Positions 28,464-37,859 of a stretch of DNA of 64,000 nt are shown piece by piece. The notes under the pieces are model-generated. The model searched no databases. It saw only the letters and a program-made list of their open reading frames with translations, and was not told the origin of the DNA. Source of the stretch: Blastocatellia bacterium (GTDB taxonomy: Bacteria > Acidobacteriota > Blastocatellia > RBC074); NCBI GenBank assembly GCA_035714085.1, contig DASTMP010000285.1:3659-67658 (forward strand), written 5' to 3'. The first letter of the stretch is position 1; each line of letters starts with the position of its first letter. Both the position numbers and the translations under genes were made by a program.

Positions 28464-30443
28464 CTACCAGGATTGCTTTGCCTTGCGCCCCAGACGGTTA
28501 ATTAGCCAAAAGATGATCACCGTAACCAATGTTATCCCGGCGATGACCATCAGCGCCAGACTCAATTGTCCGCGCGAGGGGTCGGGTTGAACTTCAAAAG
28601 ACAGAAAATCGGCGCGTTCGATCTGTAAGCCGTCGGGCGTCGAGCCTTGCGCGACGACATCTACGCCGTAGATGCCTGATTCTTTCGGAACCCACATGGC
28701 GCGTTTTTCATCGCCGCCGCCTGTAAAACCGACTTCTTCGGTTCCGCCGTCGGGGCGGCGGATGAGAGCCCGGATGGTCGCTCCGGCGAGCCGGCGTCCT
28801 GCGAGTTCCAGCGAACTCGAGATCGTGACCGGTTGATCGGGCATCGTGACCATTCGATCTGCCCGCGCATGCAGCGTCACGCCGCCGACGACTTTGGCCG
28901 CGAGCGCGTAATCGGCGCCTCTGCCCGGCGTCTGCTGGGTGGCTTTCAAGTTGACCTTCCATGTTCCCGGCTTTGGATTATCGAATCCGCAGCCGAGCGT
29001 GAAGAGCGCCGCAGGATCCTTAACCTCGACAAGGCCGTTTGCGCCTGGAGTCAAGTTGATGACATTGCCATCCGCGCCGCGAACCGTGAGGTCCAGCGAG
29101 CGGGTCGTGTCGTAAAGCGCGAAACTGGCCACTGACAATTTATCGAGGTTGATGACGATTTCGCGACCGCCGCCGGCGTTTACGTGACCGGTAAAGACTT
29201 TCGTGAACTGCTCCGGCGCCGCGCTCGAAGCGGCCACGCTCGAAGCAAGAGGCTGGGGATCGGCCTCGGCGGGAAATTCTCCGGACTGTCTCAGCAGGCG
29301 CGGCGCGACGAAATCTTTGAAGATTCGCTCCGATCCGGTCATATCGGTGTGTAGCAGCGGCGCCTCGGAAATCGGCGCCGTGACGGCGGCGACACTCGGG
29401 CGGCTCACGACCAGATCGCTCGGCGTCGCCGTGCAGGGCGCTTTGAATGAATCGATGATAGGATTACCGGCCAGCAGATGGAAAGGAACGCCGTGGCGGC
29501 GCGTAATCTGGCGGTTGAAGACTTCGGCCAGATACGCCGGGCGGAGTTCCAACGTCGCCGGCAGATAAAATCCAAGCGACGCGGGCAAACTTGCGCAACT
29601 CGTCCCGCCGTGCGGCGAACCCAGCATAATCAATTGCGCCACATCGCGGTCTCCCATCAAGCGGTCAATGTAATAACGCGAGACCAATCCGCCCATGCCG
29701 TGCGCGACCAAATCTACACTCTGCGCGCCGGTCGCGCGTTTGACTCCGGCGACGTAGCGGGCAAGCTCTTCGGCGTTCTGCGCGATCGTCTTCGTCTGTT
29801 TGAGCGGCTGCGTAGGGTCGCCCATGAACATCTCTCCTCCAGCCTGCCCGTCGCCGACCGCGAATCCTCGCAAGCCTACCGCCGCCAGATAGCCGCCCGG
29901 CTTCGTGTATTCGGCCCATGTAGCGGCTTTCGACGCCAGACCATGAACCAGCACGACCGGGCGCGCGGAGACGCGCAGCTTAGCTGTCCCTGAAAAATTC
30001 ACCATGCTCGGATCGCCCGATTCGACGCGAATCTCGCGATCGGGAACTCCCTTGCCGTCTTTGCCCCAATACCAGCCAAGCGCGGGCGCGACCTTTGTTT
30101 CACAACTTTGGGCGCCGGCCGCGATGATGCATGCGTTGATCCGGCTCTCCTTGCGCTCGTCATCGGCAAACTTGAACTTAGCGACGTGAGCCAGATCGGT
30201 GGGTCTATCCAAAGTCACTTTCAGCTTCACCGCGTCTCCGTCGGCGAGCGATTCTACTTTCGCTGATCGCCCGTTCAATACTTCGAGCGTCGCCGAATAG
30301 GACACGACGGTTTTCGCGTTTTTTTTCTGGGGCTCGTCTCGCGGCATCTCAAACTGAACCCCCTGTTGAGCGCCGCTTTGCGGCGTCAGTATCGAGGCGG
30401 CAAGCAATAATCCGAAAAACAGGGACAAGGAGCCCCGGTTCAT
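28464..30443 (-). CDS. Secreted alpha/beta-hydrolase (lipase-like) with a C-terminal TM anchor
   Basis: Signal peptide. A lipase-type nucleophile elbow (VDLVAHGMGGLVSRYY) after VVLVHGLAS. A C-terminal hydrophobic helix (LALMVIAGITLVTVIIFWLI). Confidence 0.6.
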   Translation of the reverse strand: MNRGSLSLFFGLLLAASILTPQSGAQQGVQFEMPRDEPQKKNAKTVVSYSATLEVLNGRSAKVESLADGDAVKLKVTLDRPTDLAHVAKFKFADDERKESRINACIIAAGAQSCETKVAPALGWYWGKDGKGVPDREIRVESGDPSMVNFSGTAKLRVSARPVVLVHGLASKAATWAEYTKPGGYLAAVGLRGFAVGDGQAGGEMFMGDPTQPLKQTKTIAQNAEELARYVAGVKRATGAQSVDLVAHGMGGLVSRYYIDRLMGDRDVAQLIMLGSPHGGTSCASLPASLGFYLPATLELRPAYLAEVFNRQITRRHGVPFHLLAGNPIIDSFKAPCTATPSDLVVSRPSVAAVTAPISEAPLLHTDMTGSERIFKDFVAPRLLRQSGEFPAEADPQPLASSVAASSAAPEQFTKVFTGHVNAGGGREIVINLDKLSVASFALYDTTRSLDLTVRGADGNVINLTPGANGLVEVKDPAALFTLGCGFDNPKPGTWKVNLKATQQTPGRGADYALAAKVVGGVTLHARADRMVTMPDQPVTISSSLELAGRRLAGATIRALIRRPDGGTEEVGFTGGGDEKRAMWVPKESGIYGVDVVAQGSTPDGLQIERADFLSFEVQPDPSRGQLSLALMVIAGITLVTVIIFWLINRLGRKAKQSW

Positions 30444-30544: not shown

Positions 30545-30760
30545 AAAAAACATCCACGAAGCCACACGAAGCGGCGCGAAGATTTTCTTTTTTCTTTCGT
30601 GTTTATTCGTGCGGCTTCGTGGATGTTTTTCCGAGGAGTTCAACATGTCGCGTTGCGACGCCCGGAAAAGAATGAAAATCAACCACGAAGAAACGAAGAG
30701 CGCGAAGACTTTCTTCTGTTCTTTCTTCGTTTTCTTCGTTTCTTCGTGGTTATTTTCCGC
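30545..30760. promoter_or_regulatory. Two tandem about 88-nt hairpins in a divergent intergenic region
   Basis: Hairpin 1: aaaaacatccacgaagcc(a)cacgaag ... cttcgtgcggcttcgtggatgttttt (30545..30632). Hairpin 2: aaaatcaaccacgaagaaacgaaga ... tcttcgtttcttcgtggttatttt (30674..30760). Both arms share ccacgaag/cttcgtgg cores. Confidence 0.4.
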
Positions 30761-30775
30761 AGGAGACTGAAACGA

Positions 30776-31342
30776 ATGCCGACACGTGAAGAAGCCTGGA
30801 ACCTGCTCTGCGAGTGGACCGAGAGCGACAGCCTGCGCAAACACGCGCGCGCCGTCGAACACGCCATGCGGACTTACGCCCGAAAATACGGCGAGGACGA
30901 AGCGAAGTGGGGGATCGTGGGAATGCTCCACGATTTCGATTACGAGCGTTACCCGGATCAGCGACACCCGCAACTCGGCTCCGAAGTCCTTCGCGAACGC
31001 GGGTACCCCGAAGACGTGATCCGCGCCATCCTCTCGCACGCTGATTACACCGGCGTCAAACGCGAGAGCCTCATTGAACATGCCTTATTCGCCACCGACG
31101 AGTTGTGCGGGTTCTTGACGGCCTGCGCGCTAGTCCGCCCCGACAAGAGCTTCGATACGCTCGAAGTCTCGTCGGTCAAGAAGCGGATCAAGGACAAAGC
31201 CTTCGCCCGCACTGTCAACCGCAACGACCTGTGGGGCGGCGCCGAAGAGTTGGGGCTGAGCTTCGATGAGCATTGCGCGTTCGTGATCGCCGCGCTGCGC
31301 GAGATTCAGGAAGAGCTTGGAATGAAAGGCGCGGTTGCTTGA
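30776..31342 (+). CDS. HD-domain phosphohydrolase
   Basis: AGGAG RBS 10 nt before the ATG at 30776. H...HD motif (HA...VGMLHDFDYERY) plus downstream His/Asp (ILSHADY) of the HD superfamily. The six-frame ORF extends upstream through the hairpins, but that extension is a low-complexity F/R-rich translation. Confidence 0.7.
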   Translation: MPTREEAWNLLCEWTESDSLRKHARAVEHAMRTYARKYGEDEAKWGIVGMLHDFDYERYPDQRHPQLGSEVLRERGYPEDVIRAILSHADYTGVKRESLIEHALFATDELCGFLTACALVRPDKSFDTLEVSSVKKRIKDKAFARTVNRNDLWGGAEELGLSFDEHCAFVIAALREIQEELGMKGAVA

Positions 31343-31472: not shown

Positions 31473-31502
31473 AAAGGGGCGACCATATCGGTCGCCCTTT
31501 TC
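31473..31502 (+). terminator. Rho-independent terminator after tRNA-Leu
   Basis: aaggggcgacc-atat-cggtcgcccc followed by tttt. Confidence 0.5.
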
Positions 31503-31657: not shown

Positions 31658-34600
31658 CTAGAGTAAAGCTAGAATGAATCCTCGCTCTAATAATAACTCA
31701 ATGATCGCCGCGGCAATTTCATAAAGCCCAACGCTGGCCGCAGTGAGGGTTACGGCTCCCCGCAGCGACACTGCATTCACTTTTTGGGACTTGCGGCCTC
31801 GAGCCTGGTCTCGGGCATCAATTTCCACTTGAGATGCTTGAAATACTTGGTAGACGATTAAGCCTGGGGCTGGAGACTCAAAGACCGCCCACCCGTTCGG
31901 AGCGGGCACCACACCTTGAGTTCCACTAATCCGTTGAGGCCCGGGCACGGCGCCCACGCCTGCTTCATGAAGCGCCGCACAATCCACAGCAACTTTGGCA
32001 AGTCCAATCTCCCCCCATGCCCAAGGTTTGATCTCGTAGGCGAACATCGGTGGAAGGTGTTCTGTCGAATATTCGAAAATATCGGGTTTTCTCTCTCCGA
32101 GAGCTCGAGCGATTTTGTCCGGAGTGGAACCGAAATCGCTGGCAATCTTATCGGCGATAGTTTGCACGTTAATCGTATTTGTAAATACCAGGTGCGATGG
32201 CGACGGGTGCCTTCCTTTGTAGTAGTTCGCGATCGCCTCATGGACTGCATTTCCAACGTAGAAATGTATATCCTGATTGCCGGGCGGATCCCAATCTCCA
32301 AAATCAAACGGCGCCGCCGCCATCGCCAAGGCGTTTGGTAGCTGTACGAGGCCTGCGGCTACTGCCGCAGCGTAAATGCTGGCAATTGCGCCCTCCGCAG
32401 CTTCGTCGCGAAATCCGAGCCGCTCCAAGATGCGGATTTGATCAACAGCCTTCAGCCTAAGCATTAGTTGGCCGAGTGATCCGGCCCCTTCGACATCGTC
32501 CGCAGTGCTAATCGTTCGCCCCCCATGAGCTATGAGTATAGCCTTGGTAGCCGCCAGCACACGATCATCGACGATCATGTCCTTTGTCCGCTCATTGAAA
32601 AGCTCAAGCCAAGTCATTCCGTCAAGGCTCGGTCCCTTGGAAGCCAATTGCTCAAGAACCCCTGATAGATCGCTCCATTCAAGCTGCTTCAGCTTATCGA
32701 CAACGACATAGAAGTCGTCACCGCTAGGCGAAGACGGCTTACCCAAAAGTTCGACTACGGCCTGGTAAGCCTGTTCGCTGGCTGAACTCCCAAATCCTTG
32801 CGATGTCACGCTATCAGCCAATGCAGAATTCTTAACTGTAACCGACTCAATAAAGCCACTAGGGTCTGCCGTTGTGGCGGTCACGTCTGTGCCACCACGA
32901 TTTATCGCGTCCACGCCAGCTTTCGCAACAGATGGTATTGCCTGGCGTTTCTCCTTTTCTAACTCCGCCTTCTTCGTCTCCCCCCCATCGATTTGCTGTT
33001 GCAAATGGTCCTTGACGAGCTGACCTGCCTCCTGCTTAGTGATGTCCCCGGAATTCTTCGCGGCGGTGATCGAGTCCATGATACTGCCGCTGTTCTGTGT
33101 ATTGTGTTGCTGCATGGCCATCTCCTTGGCCATCTCCCCAAACGCTTTGGCGTTTTCCTGATTCGACAGATAGGTGCGCAAGACGTTTTGCTGGTTTGCG
33201 TCCAGCCCGGTAATGTCTTTGAAGACGCCGCTCTTGCCAAGCAGTTCGGACAATCCGGCTAAGCCGGCGCCAGGCGCGGGAGAGGCCGGCGCGTTTTGGA
33301 TATTGACGATCGGCGTCGCGAAATCCTTGAAGGCGGCCTGCCAGTCCGTGACGACGGGTGTCGGCGGCGTCACCGGCGAAATGGCTGTAGGCTCATCGGT
33401 GTTGGGGAACCTGGTCCAGTCTTGCAGACGATCCGTCTCGATTTTCTCACAGGCGTTGCAGACGCCCTGCACGGCTTCCGCGAACACACCTTTGGTGGGA
33501 ACACTAATACGATAGGGCTCGATCGGTGTCAGTGGTTGATAGTGGTCGAGCAGCGAAACTATCTCGGCGCCATCTCCGATTTGTTCCACGATGTACGACT
33601 GGCTTACCTTGTAGCCGGCCGCGACCGGAAATACCAGAGAATTGCCGGTGATGGTAATCAGTTCGTTCTTGACCACGGAGGCGAGGCTTCGCGATCCGAT
33701 CGGCAAGCCGAAATCGTTGAAGTTCTGAATATTGAAACCGTCCAGCAGCATAAAGCGCCGGTCAGGATCCAGGTTGTACCAAAGCGCCTTGTTGTAATAC
33801 TCGATACTGCTATTCAAGTGCTCGAGCAACTTATAAACCAGATAGGCGTCCTCTTTTCGAGGGCTCCGTTTTTCTTCGGCGTTTTCCGGAATGAAGAGGG
33901 CGGCGCCGGTGTCGTCAAACAAATCGTCGTTGACGTTGCCGCTGTATAGCACACCGTTGTAGTGGGCGGTGGAATAGGAGATCGTCAGATTCTCGACGTT
34001 GAAGGTAATGTAGTTCTTCAGGTCCCTGAACTTCTGGTCCCTCACAGTCAGATTTAGTTGCTGCGGGAGCTGATTTCTTTTTTTGGAAGTCGAGCCGGTC
34101 AGGTTCAACCGGATCACTCTCTCCCCGCCTTTGTACTTTGTTTCGCTGGAGAAGTCGGTCGAAAATTCCGAGAGAGTGATGTCGGATACTATCTTTTCAA
34201 AGATGAGCGGGGCGATGTCGTTATAAAAGATTGCGTCCCATTCGGAGATCAAGTTTCCCTTGAAGTATGCATTGAGCATTGTCAATACATCGGTGTAGCC
34301 CAACAGGTTCGCATAAATCGTCCATTGCTTCTTATCATCATCGTTATCAGCGAAGAAGTCTAATATAGAAAAAGTGGGACTTATAGATCCTAGGGGACCA
34401 ATTGAAATCGTCGCCGGAGGTTTGAAGTTTACGACCCGAATACATTCTGCCGGAGGGACGCTTTGATAGTTTGCATCCAAACTCATGAAAGCATCAAATA
34501 TGGCTTGTCTAACTAGCACTTCGTGTTGGGTGGTGGTGTATTGAAGCCCTGGTGGATGTGGTGGAGGATCAACTATGAGGGATAATCCGAATGTCAAAGG

Positions 34601-37600
34601 GGCTATCGCAGCCTGCTTTGCAGAGTACTCAGCCATTCTTCGCGCGAAGTCGAGGTTGGCGGCAGCCGTCGCTTCAGGGTCGATTTCCTTAGTGGTGAAG
34701 GTTTGAGTGGTAATGGGGAGCGACATGATCCTGTCGAATCGCGTCCGTGGCCTTGGCAATTCCACTCTGATGCGCATGTTTCCCCTGATGAACTGTATTC
34801 GTTCGTCGTCATATGCCCCCTCAGGGTAGTCAACGTTGGCGTAATTGGTCTTGATCCTCTCATTGGCGTCAAACGCTTTCAGTAACGGATGCTGGCTGCC
34901 AGACACGGACATAGAGTTGAAAGATTGCAGATAGGTTTCCGCGGGCATCGGTAGCAGGAATTTCGCGAGCACGTCCCGCCATTTATAAATATTTTGCGCC
35001 GTGAAATTGGTCATCAAGAGCGGCACGAACACGCACTCCTCCACCGACGACAATTTCTGAAATATCGCGTAATGACGCAGCACCTCGAAATACATCATGG
35101 TCAATGCGTGGCAATGATTGTGATTGGCGACGACTTCGCTGGTTACACCATACTGCTGCCCTTCTTGGACCGTAGTGACGACCGAGGCATTGAGTTGCCG
35201 ATAAGAGTCCGCATTCTGCATGATAGATTGACGCAACTTTTCCTGAAAGAACTGGGAAATGTTGCGTGAACTGTCTTGTGAAGCGTTAGAATTAGCGTTA
35301 GCCACGCCCCCTGCTATTCCCAATACGGCGCTTCCGGAACCGCCGTAACCAGTCCCGCCCCCATAACCAGAACCACCAGTGCCGAATCCCGCGCTGATGC
35401 CGCTGGTATTTGCCGAACTGCTGCCTCGCAATGATTCCGTGATGCTTCCACCAAGTTGGTTGACGATTTCACGCTCATCTACAATTCCCGCCGTTAGGCG
35501 CTCACCTTGAGAGAGCGCTTGAGATTCTGCGCCCACTAGGCGGTGGGAAGAATCGAACACGACGATTTGCTTTTTCTGGCCGGGCGCCAATGGCAGTGAA
35601 TAAATCAGCTCGCCCAGGGAATATCCGTCGGCTTTAATTTCGGATTTGTAGTGGAGAATATGTCCAGTCGCGACAGTGACGGCCTGATATAAAGAGAGGT
35701 GTTGGTCATCATCCTGCCATGCCACAGGGTTATCCAAATCGACACGCTTACGTTCCCGTTTCTCCGCGCCTCCAACCAGCTCATAATGGGTTTCCGTCCG
35801 GGGGACCAAGGCCGCCTGCAGGTGAGCCTTCAACTCCCTGGCGTTATCTTGAACAGCTTTAAAAGCAGCATAATTCTCGATTTCGCTTTCGGGAACGATG
35901 ACATTGAACAGATAGATGATCGCATCAACGCTGTTTAGCGCAGTGGTTATATCAGCGCTCGAAGCGTTGGCAGAGATACTGCGCATGGCATCAATTTTTG
36001 CATACGCGTCGCGAAGTTTCTGTGAGTCATACCACTTTCCGAATATGGGATTTCTTACAGCTGAATCCAACGCGGAAACAGAGCGCGAGATTTCCGAAAG
36101 AAGCACAAGGGCGATGCCCGGTTGCGCGACATCAACCTTTTTCAAAGTGTAGTTCGCTACATCGGGATCCGAGGTGCGAACGATGGCCTGGTAGTTGAAC
36201 TCGCTGAGAGTCCGGTTGGGCGTCGAGAGATTAACGCAGGATCCGCCGATGTCCTGGGAATATTCGTCCGATCCGATCAAGTCCGCCTGATCGGGAAGAC
36301 GAGAAACTTTTTTCTTCGTCTGACAATCACAGTCTTCTTTGGTATCGACATGCGGGCACTCGAGATCGTTGATCAACAAGTAAAGGAAATCGTCGGCAAT
36401 CGTCTGGTCACCGTTCCTGACGGCAGTCACATTCATCGCGGCGGGGCTGTTGGGAGTCACGGAAACCAGCGCCTGGGCCTCGGTAAACACGCCAAACGGA
36501 TAGGGCATGGAAAAATTGCCCACGCAGTCTGTCGTGCCGGCTCCGACAATTCTCCAGAGCGTATCCCCCGGCGCTTTGGCCTGGATCACCACCGTCAGGT
36601 CTTTGAGCGCGCATTCCTTGCCGAACTCAAGGACCTGGCCCCTCAGTTTCTTTGCCTTGTCATGAATGAGGCGCTTATCCGCGGAAACCAGTATGACCGG
36701 TTTCTGTAAAGGGACTTTTATTTCAAGATATGCAAGACGTTGATCGTTGGCCTGGTATTCCCTAGACCAGAGCAGTGAACCGTCAAAGGATTTGACCTTG
36801 ACCCAAACCGGACTCACTACGTTGTCGTACAGGCTGAGTTGACTGTCGGGGAACGAGAATAATACTGTTGAGTTATCCTGAATTTGGATATCGTCCGTGA
36901 ATGGATAGTGAAGTATTTGCACATCCTCCATTCGCGATTCGGAGAATTCCACTGACAGATCGTAAAACAGGAAATCCTGCTTTGAAACTATTTGGGATAT
37001 GTCGTTAGTGACAATCGTGAACTTCCCGGCAATCATCGACAACGGCAATTTCTGGTCGCTCGGCAAATGAGAAGGCATGGTTTTGTCGACGGCTACTTGT
37101 GATTTCGCTGCGAGAGTTTCGAGCCTGTTGAATTGGGCGACCTCGGTCGAGACTGAGAGGGCTGATTTTGCATCGGATTTATCAGACTGCAGCAGGGTGG
37201 TAGGCTGCTGCAGGCCGGGCGCGCGTTCCATCATTTGAGTGTTGAATAAGACCCTACTCAGTTCTTTCGAATCACCGGGCGAACTCAAAGAAATTACGTC
37301 CGGGCGCGGGTCGGCGGCAGTAGCTGTTATCGGCGGCATTTCTGCGCGCGCAAGAGCTGGGTTTTGTTCAACATCCGCCTTAATAACGCGGAAGGATGAA
37401 ATGAACTCGATCGGCTCTTTCAGGCATGGGACCTGTCGGCCCACGCAGTTGCATACGGGAGTGTATTCTACGCTGTCACCGGGACTGAAGGCTGGGAATT
37501 GCGCCTCGAAATACTGGGCCTGGTTGGTGAGGTCATTGCGCAGCCAGGCGGCGGGAATGGACTCCACCGGCCCCTGGTTCAGACGATAACGCAGCTCGAT

Positions 37601-37735
37601 GCGGTAGCTTGCATCGGGCGGCTGGATTCCAATGATCACAGATTGGGACGCGCCCTCCGCGACGGTGTCCGCCGGGGCGGGGGCATCTTCTGTCCCATAC
37701 CACAAGACCATTCCATCATGCTCAAACCTCGCCAT
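31658..37735 (-). CDS. Giant uncharacterised cytoplasmic protein (about 2,025 aa) in an operon with an encapsulin shell gene
   Basis: Perfect AAGGAGG RBS 6 nt before the ATG at 37735. The ORF track's earlier start at 37804 lacks an RBS. No signal peptide or TM segment at the N-terminus. One Gly-rich segment (GFGTGGSGYGGGTGYGGSGS). No catalytic motif I recognise. GC is about 50% against about 62% for the flanking genes. Confidence 0.7.
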   Translation of the reverse strand: MARFEHDGMVLWYGTEDAPAPADTVAEGASQSVIIGIQPPDASYRIELRYRLNQGPVESIPAAWLRNDLTNQAQYFEAQFPAFSPGDSVEYTPVCNCVGRQVPCLKEPIEFISSFRVIKADVEQNPALARAEMPPITATAADPRPDVISLSSPGDSKELSRVLFNTQMMERAPGLQQPTTLLQSDKSDAKSALSVSTEVAQFNRLETLAAKSQVAVDKTMPSHLPSDQKLPLSMIAGKFTIVTNDISQIVSKQDFLFYDLSVEFSESRMEDVQILHYPFTDDIQIQDNSTVLFSFPDSQLSLYDNVVSPVWVKVKSFDGSLLWSREYQANDQRLAYLEIKVPLQKPVILVSADKRLIHDKAKKLRGQVLEFGKECALKDLTVVIQAKAPGDTLWRIVGAGTTDCVGNFSMPYPFGVFTEAQALVSVTPNSPAAMNVTAVRNGDQTIADDFLYLLINDLECPHVDTKEDCDCQTKKKVSRLPDQADLIGSDEYSQDIGGSCVNLSTPNRTLSEFNYQAIVRTSDPDVANYTLKKVDVAQPGIALVLLSEISRSVSALDSAVRNPIFGKWYDSQKLRDAYAKIDAMRSISANASSADITTALNSVDAIIYLFNVIVPESEIENYAAFKAVQDNARELKAHLQAALVPRTETHYELVGGAEKRERKRVDLDNPVAWQDDDQHLSLYQAVTVATGHILHYKSEIKADGYSLGELIYSLPLAPGQKKQIVVFDSSHRLVGAESQALSQGERLTAGIVDEREIVNQLGGSITESLRGSSSANTSGISAGFGTGGSGYGGGTGYGGSGSAVLGIAGGVANANSNASQDSSRNISQFFQEKLRQSIMQNADSYRQLNASVVTTVQEGQQYGVTSEVVANHNHCHALTMMYFEVLRHYAIFQKLSSVEECVFVPLLMTNFTAQNIYKWRDVLAKFLLPMPAETYLQSFNSMSVSGSQHPLLKAFDANERIKTNYANVDYPEGAYDDERIQFIRGNMRIRVELPRPRTRFDRIMSLPITTQTFTTKEIDPEATAAANLDFARRMAEYSAKQAAIAPLTFGLSLIVDPPPHPPGLQYTTTQHEVLVRQAIFDAFMSLDANYQSVPPAECIRVVNFKPPATISIGPLGSISPTFSILDFFADNDDDKKQWTIYANLLGYTDVLTMLNAYFKGNLISEWDAIFYNDIAPLIFEKIVSDITLSEFSTDFSSETKYKGGERVIRLNLTGSTSKKRNQLPQQLNLTVRDQKFRDLKNYITFNVENLTISYSTAHYNGVLYSGNVNDDLFDDTGAALFIPENAEEKRSPRKEDAYLVYKLLEHLNSSIEYYNKALWYNLDPDRRFMLLDGFNIQNFNDFGLPIGSRSLASVVKNELITITGNSLVFPVAAGYKVSQSYIVEQIGDGAEIVSLLDHYQPLTPIEPYRISVPTKGVFAEAVQGVCNACEKIETDRLQDWTRFPNTDEPTAISPVTPPTPVVTDWQAAFKDFATPIVNIQNAPASPAPGAGLAGLSELLGKSGVFKDITGLDANQQNVLRTYLSNQENAKAFGEMAKEMAMQQHNTQNSGSIMDSITAAKNSGDITKQEAGQLVKDHLQQQIDGGETKKAELEKEKRQAIPSVAKAGVDAINRGGTDVTATTADPSGFIESVTVKNSALADSVTSQGFGSSASEQAYQAVVELLGKPSSPSGDDFYVVVDKLKQLEWSDLSGVLEQLASKGPSLDGMTWLELFNERTKDMIVDDRVLAATKAILIAHGGRTISTADDVEGAGSLGQLMLRLKAVDQIRILERLGFRDEAAEGAIASIYAAAVAAGLVQLPNALAMAAAPFDFGDWDPPGNQDIHFYVGNAVHEAIANYYKGRHPSPSHLVFTNTINVQTIADKIASDFGSTPDKIARALGERKPDIFEYSTEHLPPMFAYEIKPWAWGEIGLAKVAVDCAALHEAGVGAVPGPQRISGTQGVVPAPNGWAVFESPAPGLIVYQVFQASQVEIDARDQARGRKSQKVNAVSLRGAVTLTAASVGLYEIAAAIIELLLERGFILALL

Positions 37736-37859
37736 ATTCACCTCCTTGTTCAGGATGGCATAGGTGCGCCATTCAATATCCCTTCGACAGGCCGAGAGCG
37801 CCACTCACTCCCTGGCCGTCTCCATTCTGGCTCTTCTCCAGGCTCGGATTCCCGACCCT

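Follow-up and report, generated by a model that had tools for sequence, protein, structure and literature searches.

The compartments formed by known encapsulins house peroxidases, ferritin-like proteins, desulfurases and biosynthetic enzymes. Polymorphic toxins of the MuF type are packaged in phage heads, and linocin M18 was reportedly first described as a bacteriocin; we know of nothing comparable to the MuF case that has been demonstrated for encapsulins. MARTX and large clostridial toxins are single giant polypeptides with glycine-rich or hydrophobic translocation regions and an internal cysteine protease ahead of the effector or effectors. In family 1 encapsulin systems the rule is that the primary cargo is encoded immediately ahead of the shell gene and ends in a C-terminal loading peptide; six cargo types, with toxins never mentioned, were listed by Andreas and Giessen (2021), and encapsulins have been described as 'falsely annotated as bacteriocin'. 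A genome-wide survey of Tc loci makes no mention of encapsulin, linocin or capsid, neither Peptidase_C70 nor encapsulin appears in the text on polymorphic toxin systems by Zhang, Aravind et al. (2012), and we found no report in the open-access literature of encapsulin or linocin operons with Tc, polymorphic or insecticidal toxins. Here we analyzed a giant open reading frame (ORF) located downstream of an encapsulin-like gene in a stretch of 64,000 nucleotides from a Blastocatellia bacterium (GenBank assembly GCA_035714085.1, contig DASTMP010000285.1, positions 3,659 to 67,658; this whole stretch is called the window below).

The giant gene (31658..37735, minus strand) encodes 2025 amino acids (aa) and is preceded, 124 bp upstream, by the encapsulin-like shell gene (37860..38744, minus strand, 294 aa). 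Together they may form a two-gene module in which the giant protein, a modular toxin, is docked to or packaged in the encapsulin-like shell, a reading for which we see the chances as evenly balanced. The ORF of the shell gene (37860..38762, minus strand) contains two in-frame ATGs, the second of which (38744) has a Shine-Dalgarno (SD) sequence and agrees with a 294-aa database protein. Its product matches the HK97-fold family Linocin_M18 in Pfam (4e-18, 65.9 bits, cut-off 24.3) and reaches 80.2 bits with NCBIfam encap_f1, below the equivalog cut-off of 100. A profile built from the shell clade matches M. xanthus EncA and T=4 shells end to end (1e-19 to 1e-17), including the N-terminal helix region, and the protein is nearest to T=3 and T=4 shells. 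On these alignments the shell protein is classed as a genuine encapsulin homologue belonging to a divergent family-1-like clade. The HK97 fold would also suit a prophage remnant composed of a major capsid protein and a giant internal-virion, tail or lysin protein, and relatives of the giant protein do carry cell-wall hydrolase domains as found in virion-associated lysins. However, the shell matches encapsulins and not phage capsids, no PHROG or BFVD fold matches were obtained, and portal, terminase and tail genes were not found nearby; among 2.9 million viral contigs the conserved core of the giant protein occurs once and its N-terminal domain never. A phage origin is therefore highly improbable.

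This N-terminal domain (N-ext; 37361..37735, minus strand, aa 1-125, 'LWYGTxDAPAP...YRxNQG...GRQVP') is a candidate encapsulin-docking module. An earlier note on this DNA had seen neither a targeting element nor a catalytic signature in the giant protein; candidates for both have now emerged, the first being the ~125-aa N-ext domain, which within the family occurs only with an encapsulin-like gene directly upstream. Among the first 83 loci of the giant family, a Linocin_M18 gene was detected only at the window copies and at L026, whose giant protein has the same unusual N-terminus as that of the window. Targeted look-ups revealed Linocin_M18 genes directly upstream of the giants P0027, P0010, P0026, L170 and P0002, and scans of all loci with hidden Markov models (HMMs) placed one directly upstream in seven of seven N-ext loci (window, L170, L175, L026, L084/85, L086 and the P0026 contig). 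None of the other family loci with enough upstream sequence (approximately 66) has N-ext or an encapsulin-like gene. Amino acids 1-235 are common to only about 10 homologues, and since a complete standard protein begins at residue ~400-460 in the members of 2.5 kaa, N-ext and the linker following it constitute an N-terminal add-on.

Comparison of six paired loci showed that the pairwise identity of the shell correlates with that of N-ext (r = 0.94), the values for domain A and the core of the toxin body being 0.47 and 0.66, respectively. L175 and L086 have cores that are 82% identical, with only 33% identity between the shells and 24% between the N-ext domains, and between the window and L175 the shell is 90% and N-ext 87% identical, domain A only 60%. 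Thus, shell and N-ext move and diverge as one unit apart from the toxin body. A HMMER search with N-ext yielded 440 representative clusters, in which the domain almost invariably starts at residue 1 of a giant protein (a word-indexed homologue search with N-ext alone yielded two fragments only). As the earlier note had stated, there is no classical family-1 C-terminal loading peptide (consensus SDGSLGIGSLKRS): the protein ends in a hydrophobic tail (31661..31765, minus strand, aa 1991-2025) following the nuclease-like domain, and the C-termini of the 12 N-ext relatives are unrelated to one another. A 'LETRI' motif in the linker was considered as a hidden loading peptide and discarded, being confined to one subclade (7 of 109).

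The giant protein has more than 147 homologues with lengths of 1.7-2.6 kaa, the best 120 of which scored E = 0 in the search, and when 185,579 species-representative genomes were scanned with a pattern, the core turned up in 225, distributed over Bacteroidota, Pseudomonadota, Myxococcota, Actinomycetota, Bacillota, Acidobacteriota, Chloroflexota and Verrucomicrobiota. A core with 51% identity was also seen on one contig of a Candidatus Methanoperedens metagenome-assembled genome (L059), either by horizontal transfer or by a binning error. Colinear conserved blocks stop at aa ~1635, and aa 1636-2025 were matched in three homologues only. In most relatives the core is succeeded by Peptidase_C70 and then by Pesticin, Amidase_6, Peptidase_M15_4, DUF2272 or DUF4056, while others end in GH25, OmpA, a beta-lactamase-like domain or Tectonin; the giant protein of the window lacks the Peptidase_C70 protease found in most relatives. 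A constant body with exchangeable, mostly peptidoglycan-directed tips follows the logic of polymorphic antibacterial toxins, and judged by this domain organization the family is one of giant modular polymorphic-toxin-like proteins, previously undescribed. Most members are stand-alone genes without any encapsulin, signal peptides were not found in the N-termini, and most loci fall outside defence islands. The earlier note had considered homology to a known stand-alone family as an outcome that would speak against its reading, and this outcome was found in part: the relatives are polymorphic-toxin-like and mostly without an encapsulin, but the family is uncharacterised and neither TcA nor RHS. 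It is widespread and looks antibacterial, with Chitinophaga, Pedobacter, Bacillus, Streptomyces and Corallococcus among the hosts, and comprises about 1600 aa of machinery without a known fold or family; many isolates offer cultured access to the stand-alone toxin.

The tip of the window protein is a putative Tox-REase-9-like PD-(D/E)xK nuclease warhead (31766..32293, minus strand, about aa 1815-1990), and we consider it probable that the domain is indeed a nuclease. This last folded domain contains GNAVH-E, KPDIFEY (aa 1883) and YEIKPW (aa 1900), which is where a catalytic signature had been missed, and has four of the five elements of the Tox-REase-9 signature 'GxxxH, E, D, ELKP, YxxE' (Zhang, Aravind et al., 2012). 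The last ~200 aa are 50% identical to P0003 and 25% identical to P0002 and P0008; in blastp the window warhead matches P0008 at 5e-10 (values for P0002/P0008: 5e-10 and 9e-8). The domains of P0002 and P0008 match Pfam Tox-REase-9 (E = 8.6e-4), the window domain itself having no Pfam match, and an alignment of the four warheads showed that the positions H, PD, YEIKP (ExKP) and PG..I.Y are invariant. The predicted secondary structure (helix, strand, strands bearing D and ExK, helix, strands) fits the PD-(D/E)xK fold in a low-confidence model, and AlphaFold2 (AF2) modelling of the C-terminal 390 aa from four sequences did not reach a quality that would allow searching by fold.

The same shell clade is found in Tc-toxin operons. 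Metagenome homologues of the shell with 38-51% identity provided 42 loci with downstream sequence, in which the shell gene is followed, at a distance of 7-450 bp, by a giant ORF. The products of 41 of them cluster with TcA-like proteins (ABC_toxin_N, Neuraminidase-like, TcA_TcB_BD), and the single exception is TcB-like. Shells of this clade also lie directly upstream of TcA-like giants in L087, L088 and L171, so that TcA-like genes are positioned like the giant gene, which is downstream of the shell gene in seven of seven loci. Several loci have TcB/C fusions upstream of the shell, one of which combines an RHS region with a Tox-HNH-HHH tip. On plasmid pNRS527-1 of Nitrosospira sp. NRS527 the order is SpvB/TcaC, hypothetical, 'encapsulin' (WP_213539893.1) and neuraminidase-like TcA (WP_213539894.1), which gives a cultured handle on an operon with a shell inside a Tc locus. 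Long N-ext proteins are mostly TcA-like, N-ext standing where the shell-linked TcA-like proteins have PG_binding_1, and a few carry the core with its NHNHCH motif. The shells that accompany the giant family are not supported as one clade: the window shell nests among Tc-linked shells, and the shells of L026, L084 and L086 are divergent.

Further observations were made on these Tc loci. The shell gene lies between TcB/C and TcA in L097 (2533..9828), L174 (NZ_AP024516.1 55510..75730) and L171, with a small nucleotidyltransferase gene after TcA in both L171 and L174. In these environmental loci TcB/C bears a Tox-HNH-HHH nuclease tip, PG_binding_1 stands at the beginning of the TcA-like protein, and the toxins look antibacterial rather than insecticidal. 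In Streptomyces chartreusis NBC_00851 (L173, NZ_CP108841.1 64015..71331) an N-ext-TcA-like protein of 2439 aa is encoded with a GH18 chitinase gene upstream.

Several points weigh against a toxin packaged in an encapsulin. Physical encapsulation is something we infer here. With its cargo gene downstream and no C-terminal loading peptide, the module departs from all characterised family-1 systems, and most members of the giant family operate without any shell. Across families, N-ext is neither necessary nor sufficient for the pairing, since the TcA-like partners of the shell clade in the collected loci do not have N-ext and no encapsulin-like gene accompanies the N-ext-TcA-like gene of S. chartreusis over 14 kb on its upstream and 7 kb on its downstream side. 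With respect to the warhead, the case for a nuclease is built on motifs and on homology traced in two steps, the AF2 model of the domain is poor (predicted local distance difference test, pLDDT, 46), and no immunity gene was recognised beside the window toxin.

The main rival explanation, which we regard as rather unlikely, is that the shell protein does not form a closed cargo shell and is an accessory factor that acts, for instance, as chaperone, assembly platform, five-fold cap or release factor. A toxin that is itself pentameric, like TcA, could be matched by a pentamer of the HK97 type, and N-ext would then be a general N-terminal toxin module that binds, for example, receptors or carbohydrates and only accompanies the shell gene; weak sub-threshold matches of N-ext to the beta-sandwich N-domains of GH31 enzymes are in line with this. 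The accessory role would also account for a shell clade that pairs with two unrelated giant families differing in their N-termini (PG_binding_1 or N-ext), for shell genes between TcB/C and TcA inside Tc operons, and for the lacking loading peptide and the shell-free S. chartreusis gene. It is opposed by the end-to-end alignment of the clade profile with shell-forming encapsulins and by the perfect co-occurrence of N-ext and the encapsulin-like gene within the giant family, together with a co-divergence that exceeds that of the adjacent toxin domains.

The domain layout of the giant protein was derived by mapping BLAST segments of homologues onto the window protein. N-ext is followed by a low-complexity linker rich in Pro, Ser, Ala and Thr (37031..37360, minus strand, aa 126-235), which is poorly conserved (52% identity to L170, with a ratio of nonsynonymous to synonymous substitution rates, dN/dS, of 0.53). 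Domain A (36131..37030, minus strand, aa 236-535, ~300 aa) is kept across the whole family and includes a Cys-rich DLECPHVD..DCDC stretch (36308..36367, minus strand, aa 457); homologue coverage falls in the variable linker behind it (35786..36130, minus strand, aa 536-650). The conserved core of ~985 aa (32831..35785, minus strand, aa 651-1635) is 50-73% identical across phyla and had no match to a known family or fold. It contains the Gly-rich tract GFGTGGSGYGGGTGYGGSGS (35330..35389, minus strand, aa 783-802), whose flanking Gly residues are invariant among homologues. The region of the tract gave weak matches to the Gly-zipper families DUF726 and C19orf12, and its AF2 model shows long strands at low confidence; the tract is possibly a glycine zipper or a membrane-insertion element. 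The NHNHCH motif (35108..35125, minus strand, aa 871-876) is invariant in 120 of 120 homologues and, with a conserved VEEC and the CNACEK motif (33443..33460, minus strand, conserved in the core as CxACEK), makes up a candidate metal site. The AF2 model of the core (pLDDT 59.7) can be used for core residues ~250-740 only and leaves the first 250, which are the most conserved, unmodelled; the well-modelled part includes a PLAT/LH2-like beta-sandwich (33893..34180, minus strand, about aa 1186-1281). Between core and warhead lies a helical pre-toxin region (32294..32830, minus strand, aa 1636-1814) that is common only to P0003.

The giant gene is intact. An uninterrupted minus-strand ORF extends over 31658..37804, corresponding to 2048 aa when read from the GTG at 37804, the far end of the longest ORF. 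ATG 37735 is most likely the true start, giving 2025 aa, because the SD sequence AAGGAGGTG (37739..37747, minus strand, with AAGGAGG at 37741-37747) is strong and well spaced, 5 nt before this ATG, and because the orthologues P0002 and L170 begin with MAK(F/I)EH.G at the equivalent Met. The N-terminus is thereby MARFEHDGMVLWYGTEDAPAPADTV, as the earlier note had read it. All local features listed in that note were likewise recovered: the Gly tract (aa 783), ANHNHCH (aa 870), DLECPHVD...DCDC (aa 457), the hydrophobic tail (aa 1994-2025), and a C-terminal region of ~400 aa that is rich in Ala and Gly (14.0% and 8.8%, vs 9.1% and 5.7% in the rest of the protein). Internal repeats, which it had suggested looking for, were not found by self-BLAST. 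Searches with the whole protein against Pfam, NCBIfam, PHROGs, PADLOC and PDB sequences gave no match and piecewise searches of the body against the same collections nothing significant, in agreement with the earlier guess that no curated family covers it. The note had also argued for function from an intact frame at lower GC content, and this argument holds: the GC content is 0.50 at 34-36 kb inside the gene vs ~0.57 across the window, and the conserved blocks are colinear with 119 homologues, without frameshifts, which speaks against a pseudogene. The identical protein is present on four metagenome contigs. The dN/dS values against the L170 orthologue (0.13 in the core, 0.35-0.53 in the N-terminal parts outside it) reveal purifying selection, showing that the gene is functional.

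Comparison with L170 (11000..16618) also showed that dS is 0.2-0.4 from N-ext to aa 650 and 1.05 in the core, and that the C-termini are only 25% identical. This jump in dS, together with the diverged C-termini, is a recombination signature and points to breakpoints within the giant gene. A terminator-like hairpin (31477..31497, minus strand), a consensus match only, is located ~160 bp past the stop codon. The stretch that separates the stop codon from a convergent HD-domain gene has a single ORF of 125 codons, which is Arg-rich, not conserved and not shared with the P0003 locus. The HD-domain gene (30623..31342, plus strand) runs towards the giant gene's 3' end here and likewise in the P0002 locus (L175 8602..9168); it could reflect plain synteny of relatives or have an accessory or immunity function. 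Beyond it, 28464..30443 (minus strand) encodes a 659-aa alpha/beta-hydrolase (lipase/PGAP1-like) with a PPC domain, which is not conserved in related loci.

On the other side, an extracytoplasmic function (ECF) sigma factor gene (PF07638; 38998..39570, plus strand) is divergent from the shell-toxin module and is followed by a Ser/Thr kinase-TPR gene (39586..42372, plus strand). The pair is also found beside the module in L170 (5387..8766) and L086 (772..4251), the L086 kinase having beta-propellers where the window kinase has TPR repeats. From this neighbourhood, the pair is possibly a dedicated regulator of the module, and the earlier remark on envelope-stress control by the ECF sigma factor is plausible.

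The surroundings of some relatives are of a different kind. In L084 (1207..5487) and L085 (1158..7874) the shell gene is immediately preceded by a gene for a prokaryotic Argonaute (pAgo, Piwi), accompanied by a PD-(D/E)xK nuclease, and TIR/SEFIR, integrase and Tn3 genes near the module give it a mobile or defence-island look; the module of L087 adjoins TniQ and a transposase. Such neighbours, together with the lack of signal peptides, would suit an intracellular anti-phage or abortive infection system, in which a capsid-like sensor or decoy acts with a giant suicide effector (a nuclease here, cell-wall lysis in relatives). Yet there was no PADLOC match, the warheads of the family (Pesticin, amidases, GH25, M15) are typical of secreted antibacterial toxins, the shell clade is tied mainly to Tc toxins, which are extracellular translocases, and most family loci are not in defence islands; an anti-phage function is thus improbable.

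For a toxin docked to an encapsulin-like shell, the following mechanism can be proposed. N-ext on its flexible linker would dock the toxin to the shell protein, so that a large HK97-fold particle (T=3 or T=4-like) would either enclose the toxin or display it. Once enclosed, a nuclease that is dangerous in the cytoplasm would stay sequestered and stabilised until release; with no immunity gene visible, packaging or display would explain how a nuclease toxin without a signal peptide is tolerated and stored. Since there is no signal peptide, release would probably occur by lysis, which is speculative. Equally speculatively, a Gly-rich segment and a PLAT-like lipid-binding domain might enable the core to bind the target envelope and translocate the warhead, which would then cleave nucleic acid. 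Expression would probably be under the control of the divergent ECF sigma and Ser/Thr kinase pair. More generally, this encapsulin-like shell clade might exist to package, protect and perhaps deliver giant toxins, both Tc toxins and those with the NHNHCH core, recruited via folded N-terminal docking domains; we offer this as a tentative proposal and consider it somewhat doubtful. If it were true, some 'linocin' particles would be bacteriocin-like weapons, the function of encapsulins would extend beyond metabolism and storage, and a new functional class of encapsulins would load its cargo in a new way, through a docking domain on a long tether. The question would also be touched of how Tc-type and other giant toxins without signal peptides are stored safely and released.

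Compared with the family 1 encapsulins (M. xanthus EncA with EncB/C/D and the T=4 shell of Quasibacillus thermotolerans), the window shell is a Linocin_M18/HK97-fold homologue with a full-length alignment, and it is likewise encoded in a two-gene operon with a presumptive partner. Whereas classical cargo is a small enzyme encoded upstream, the partner here is a 223-kDa toxin encoded downstream, and the candidate for docking is not a C-terminal peptide but a folded N-terminal domain on a long linker.

With the polymorphic toxin systems of Zhang, Aravind et al. (2012) the window protein shares the conserved body with swappable C-terminal tips and the REase-9 motif set, and most members of its family have a papain-like peptidase ahead of the warhead. 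In contrast to these systems, the giant body of ~1600 aa matches no trafficking module (RHS, filamentous haemagglutinin, LXG/WXG, PAAR, TPS or signal peptide), and no adjacent immunity gene was recognised at the window toxin. RHS/YD repeats are not indicated in the giant protein, which gave no Pfam match to them and has no internal repeats.

TcA proteins have in common with the window protein the giant size, the upstream encapsulin-like clade and the N-ext module, and nuclease warheads are present in the linked TcB/C proteins; the window protein carries its own warhead, whereas the Tc warhead sits in a separate BC cocoon. None of the TcA domains VRP1, ABC_toxin_N, Neuraminidase-like and TcA_TcB_BD was detected in the giant protein by Pfam. 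Kinship between the giants and TcA, suggested by a 98% probability in a whole-alignment hhalign comparison, was rejected: domain-wise comparisons with 20 TcA-like sequences gave probabilities below 2%, and the match is an artefact since it was lost when domains were compared separately.

The giant family resembles MARTX and large clostridial toxins in size, in its translocation-like regions and in the cysteine protease of most members; no homology to these toxins was detected, and the window member is without the protease. The likely targets are bacteria, because the effectors of the relatives act on peptidoglycan. MuF toxins and linocin M18 likewise involve the notion of a toxin carried inside an HK97-fold particle, but the window module has neither a MuF domain nor a phage. 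Since the body has no curated family or fold and none of the open-access papers searched links toxin and encapsulin, we file the giant ORF as new. Taken together, these comparisons of sequence and gene order indicate that it is not a classical cargo, TcA or RHS protein but a member of a new polymorphic-toxin-like family with a new arrangement of an encapsulin system.

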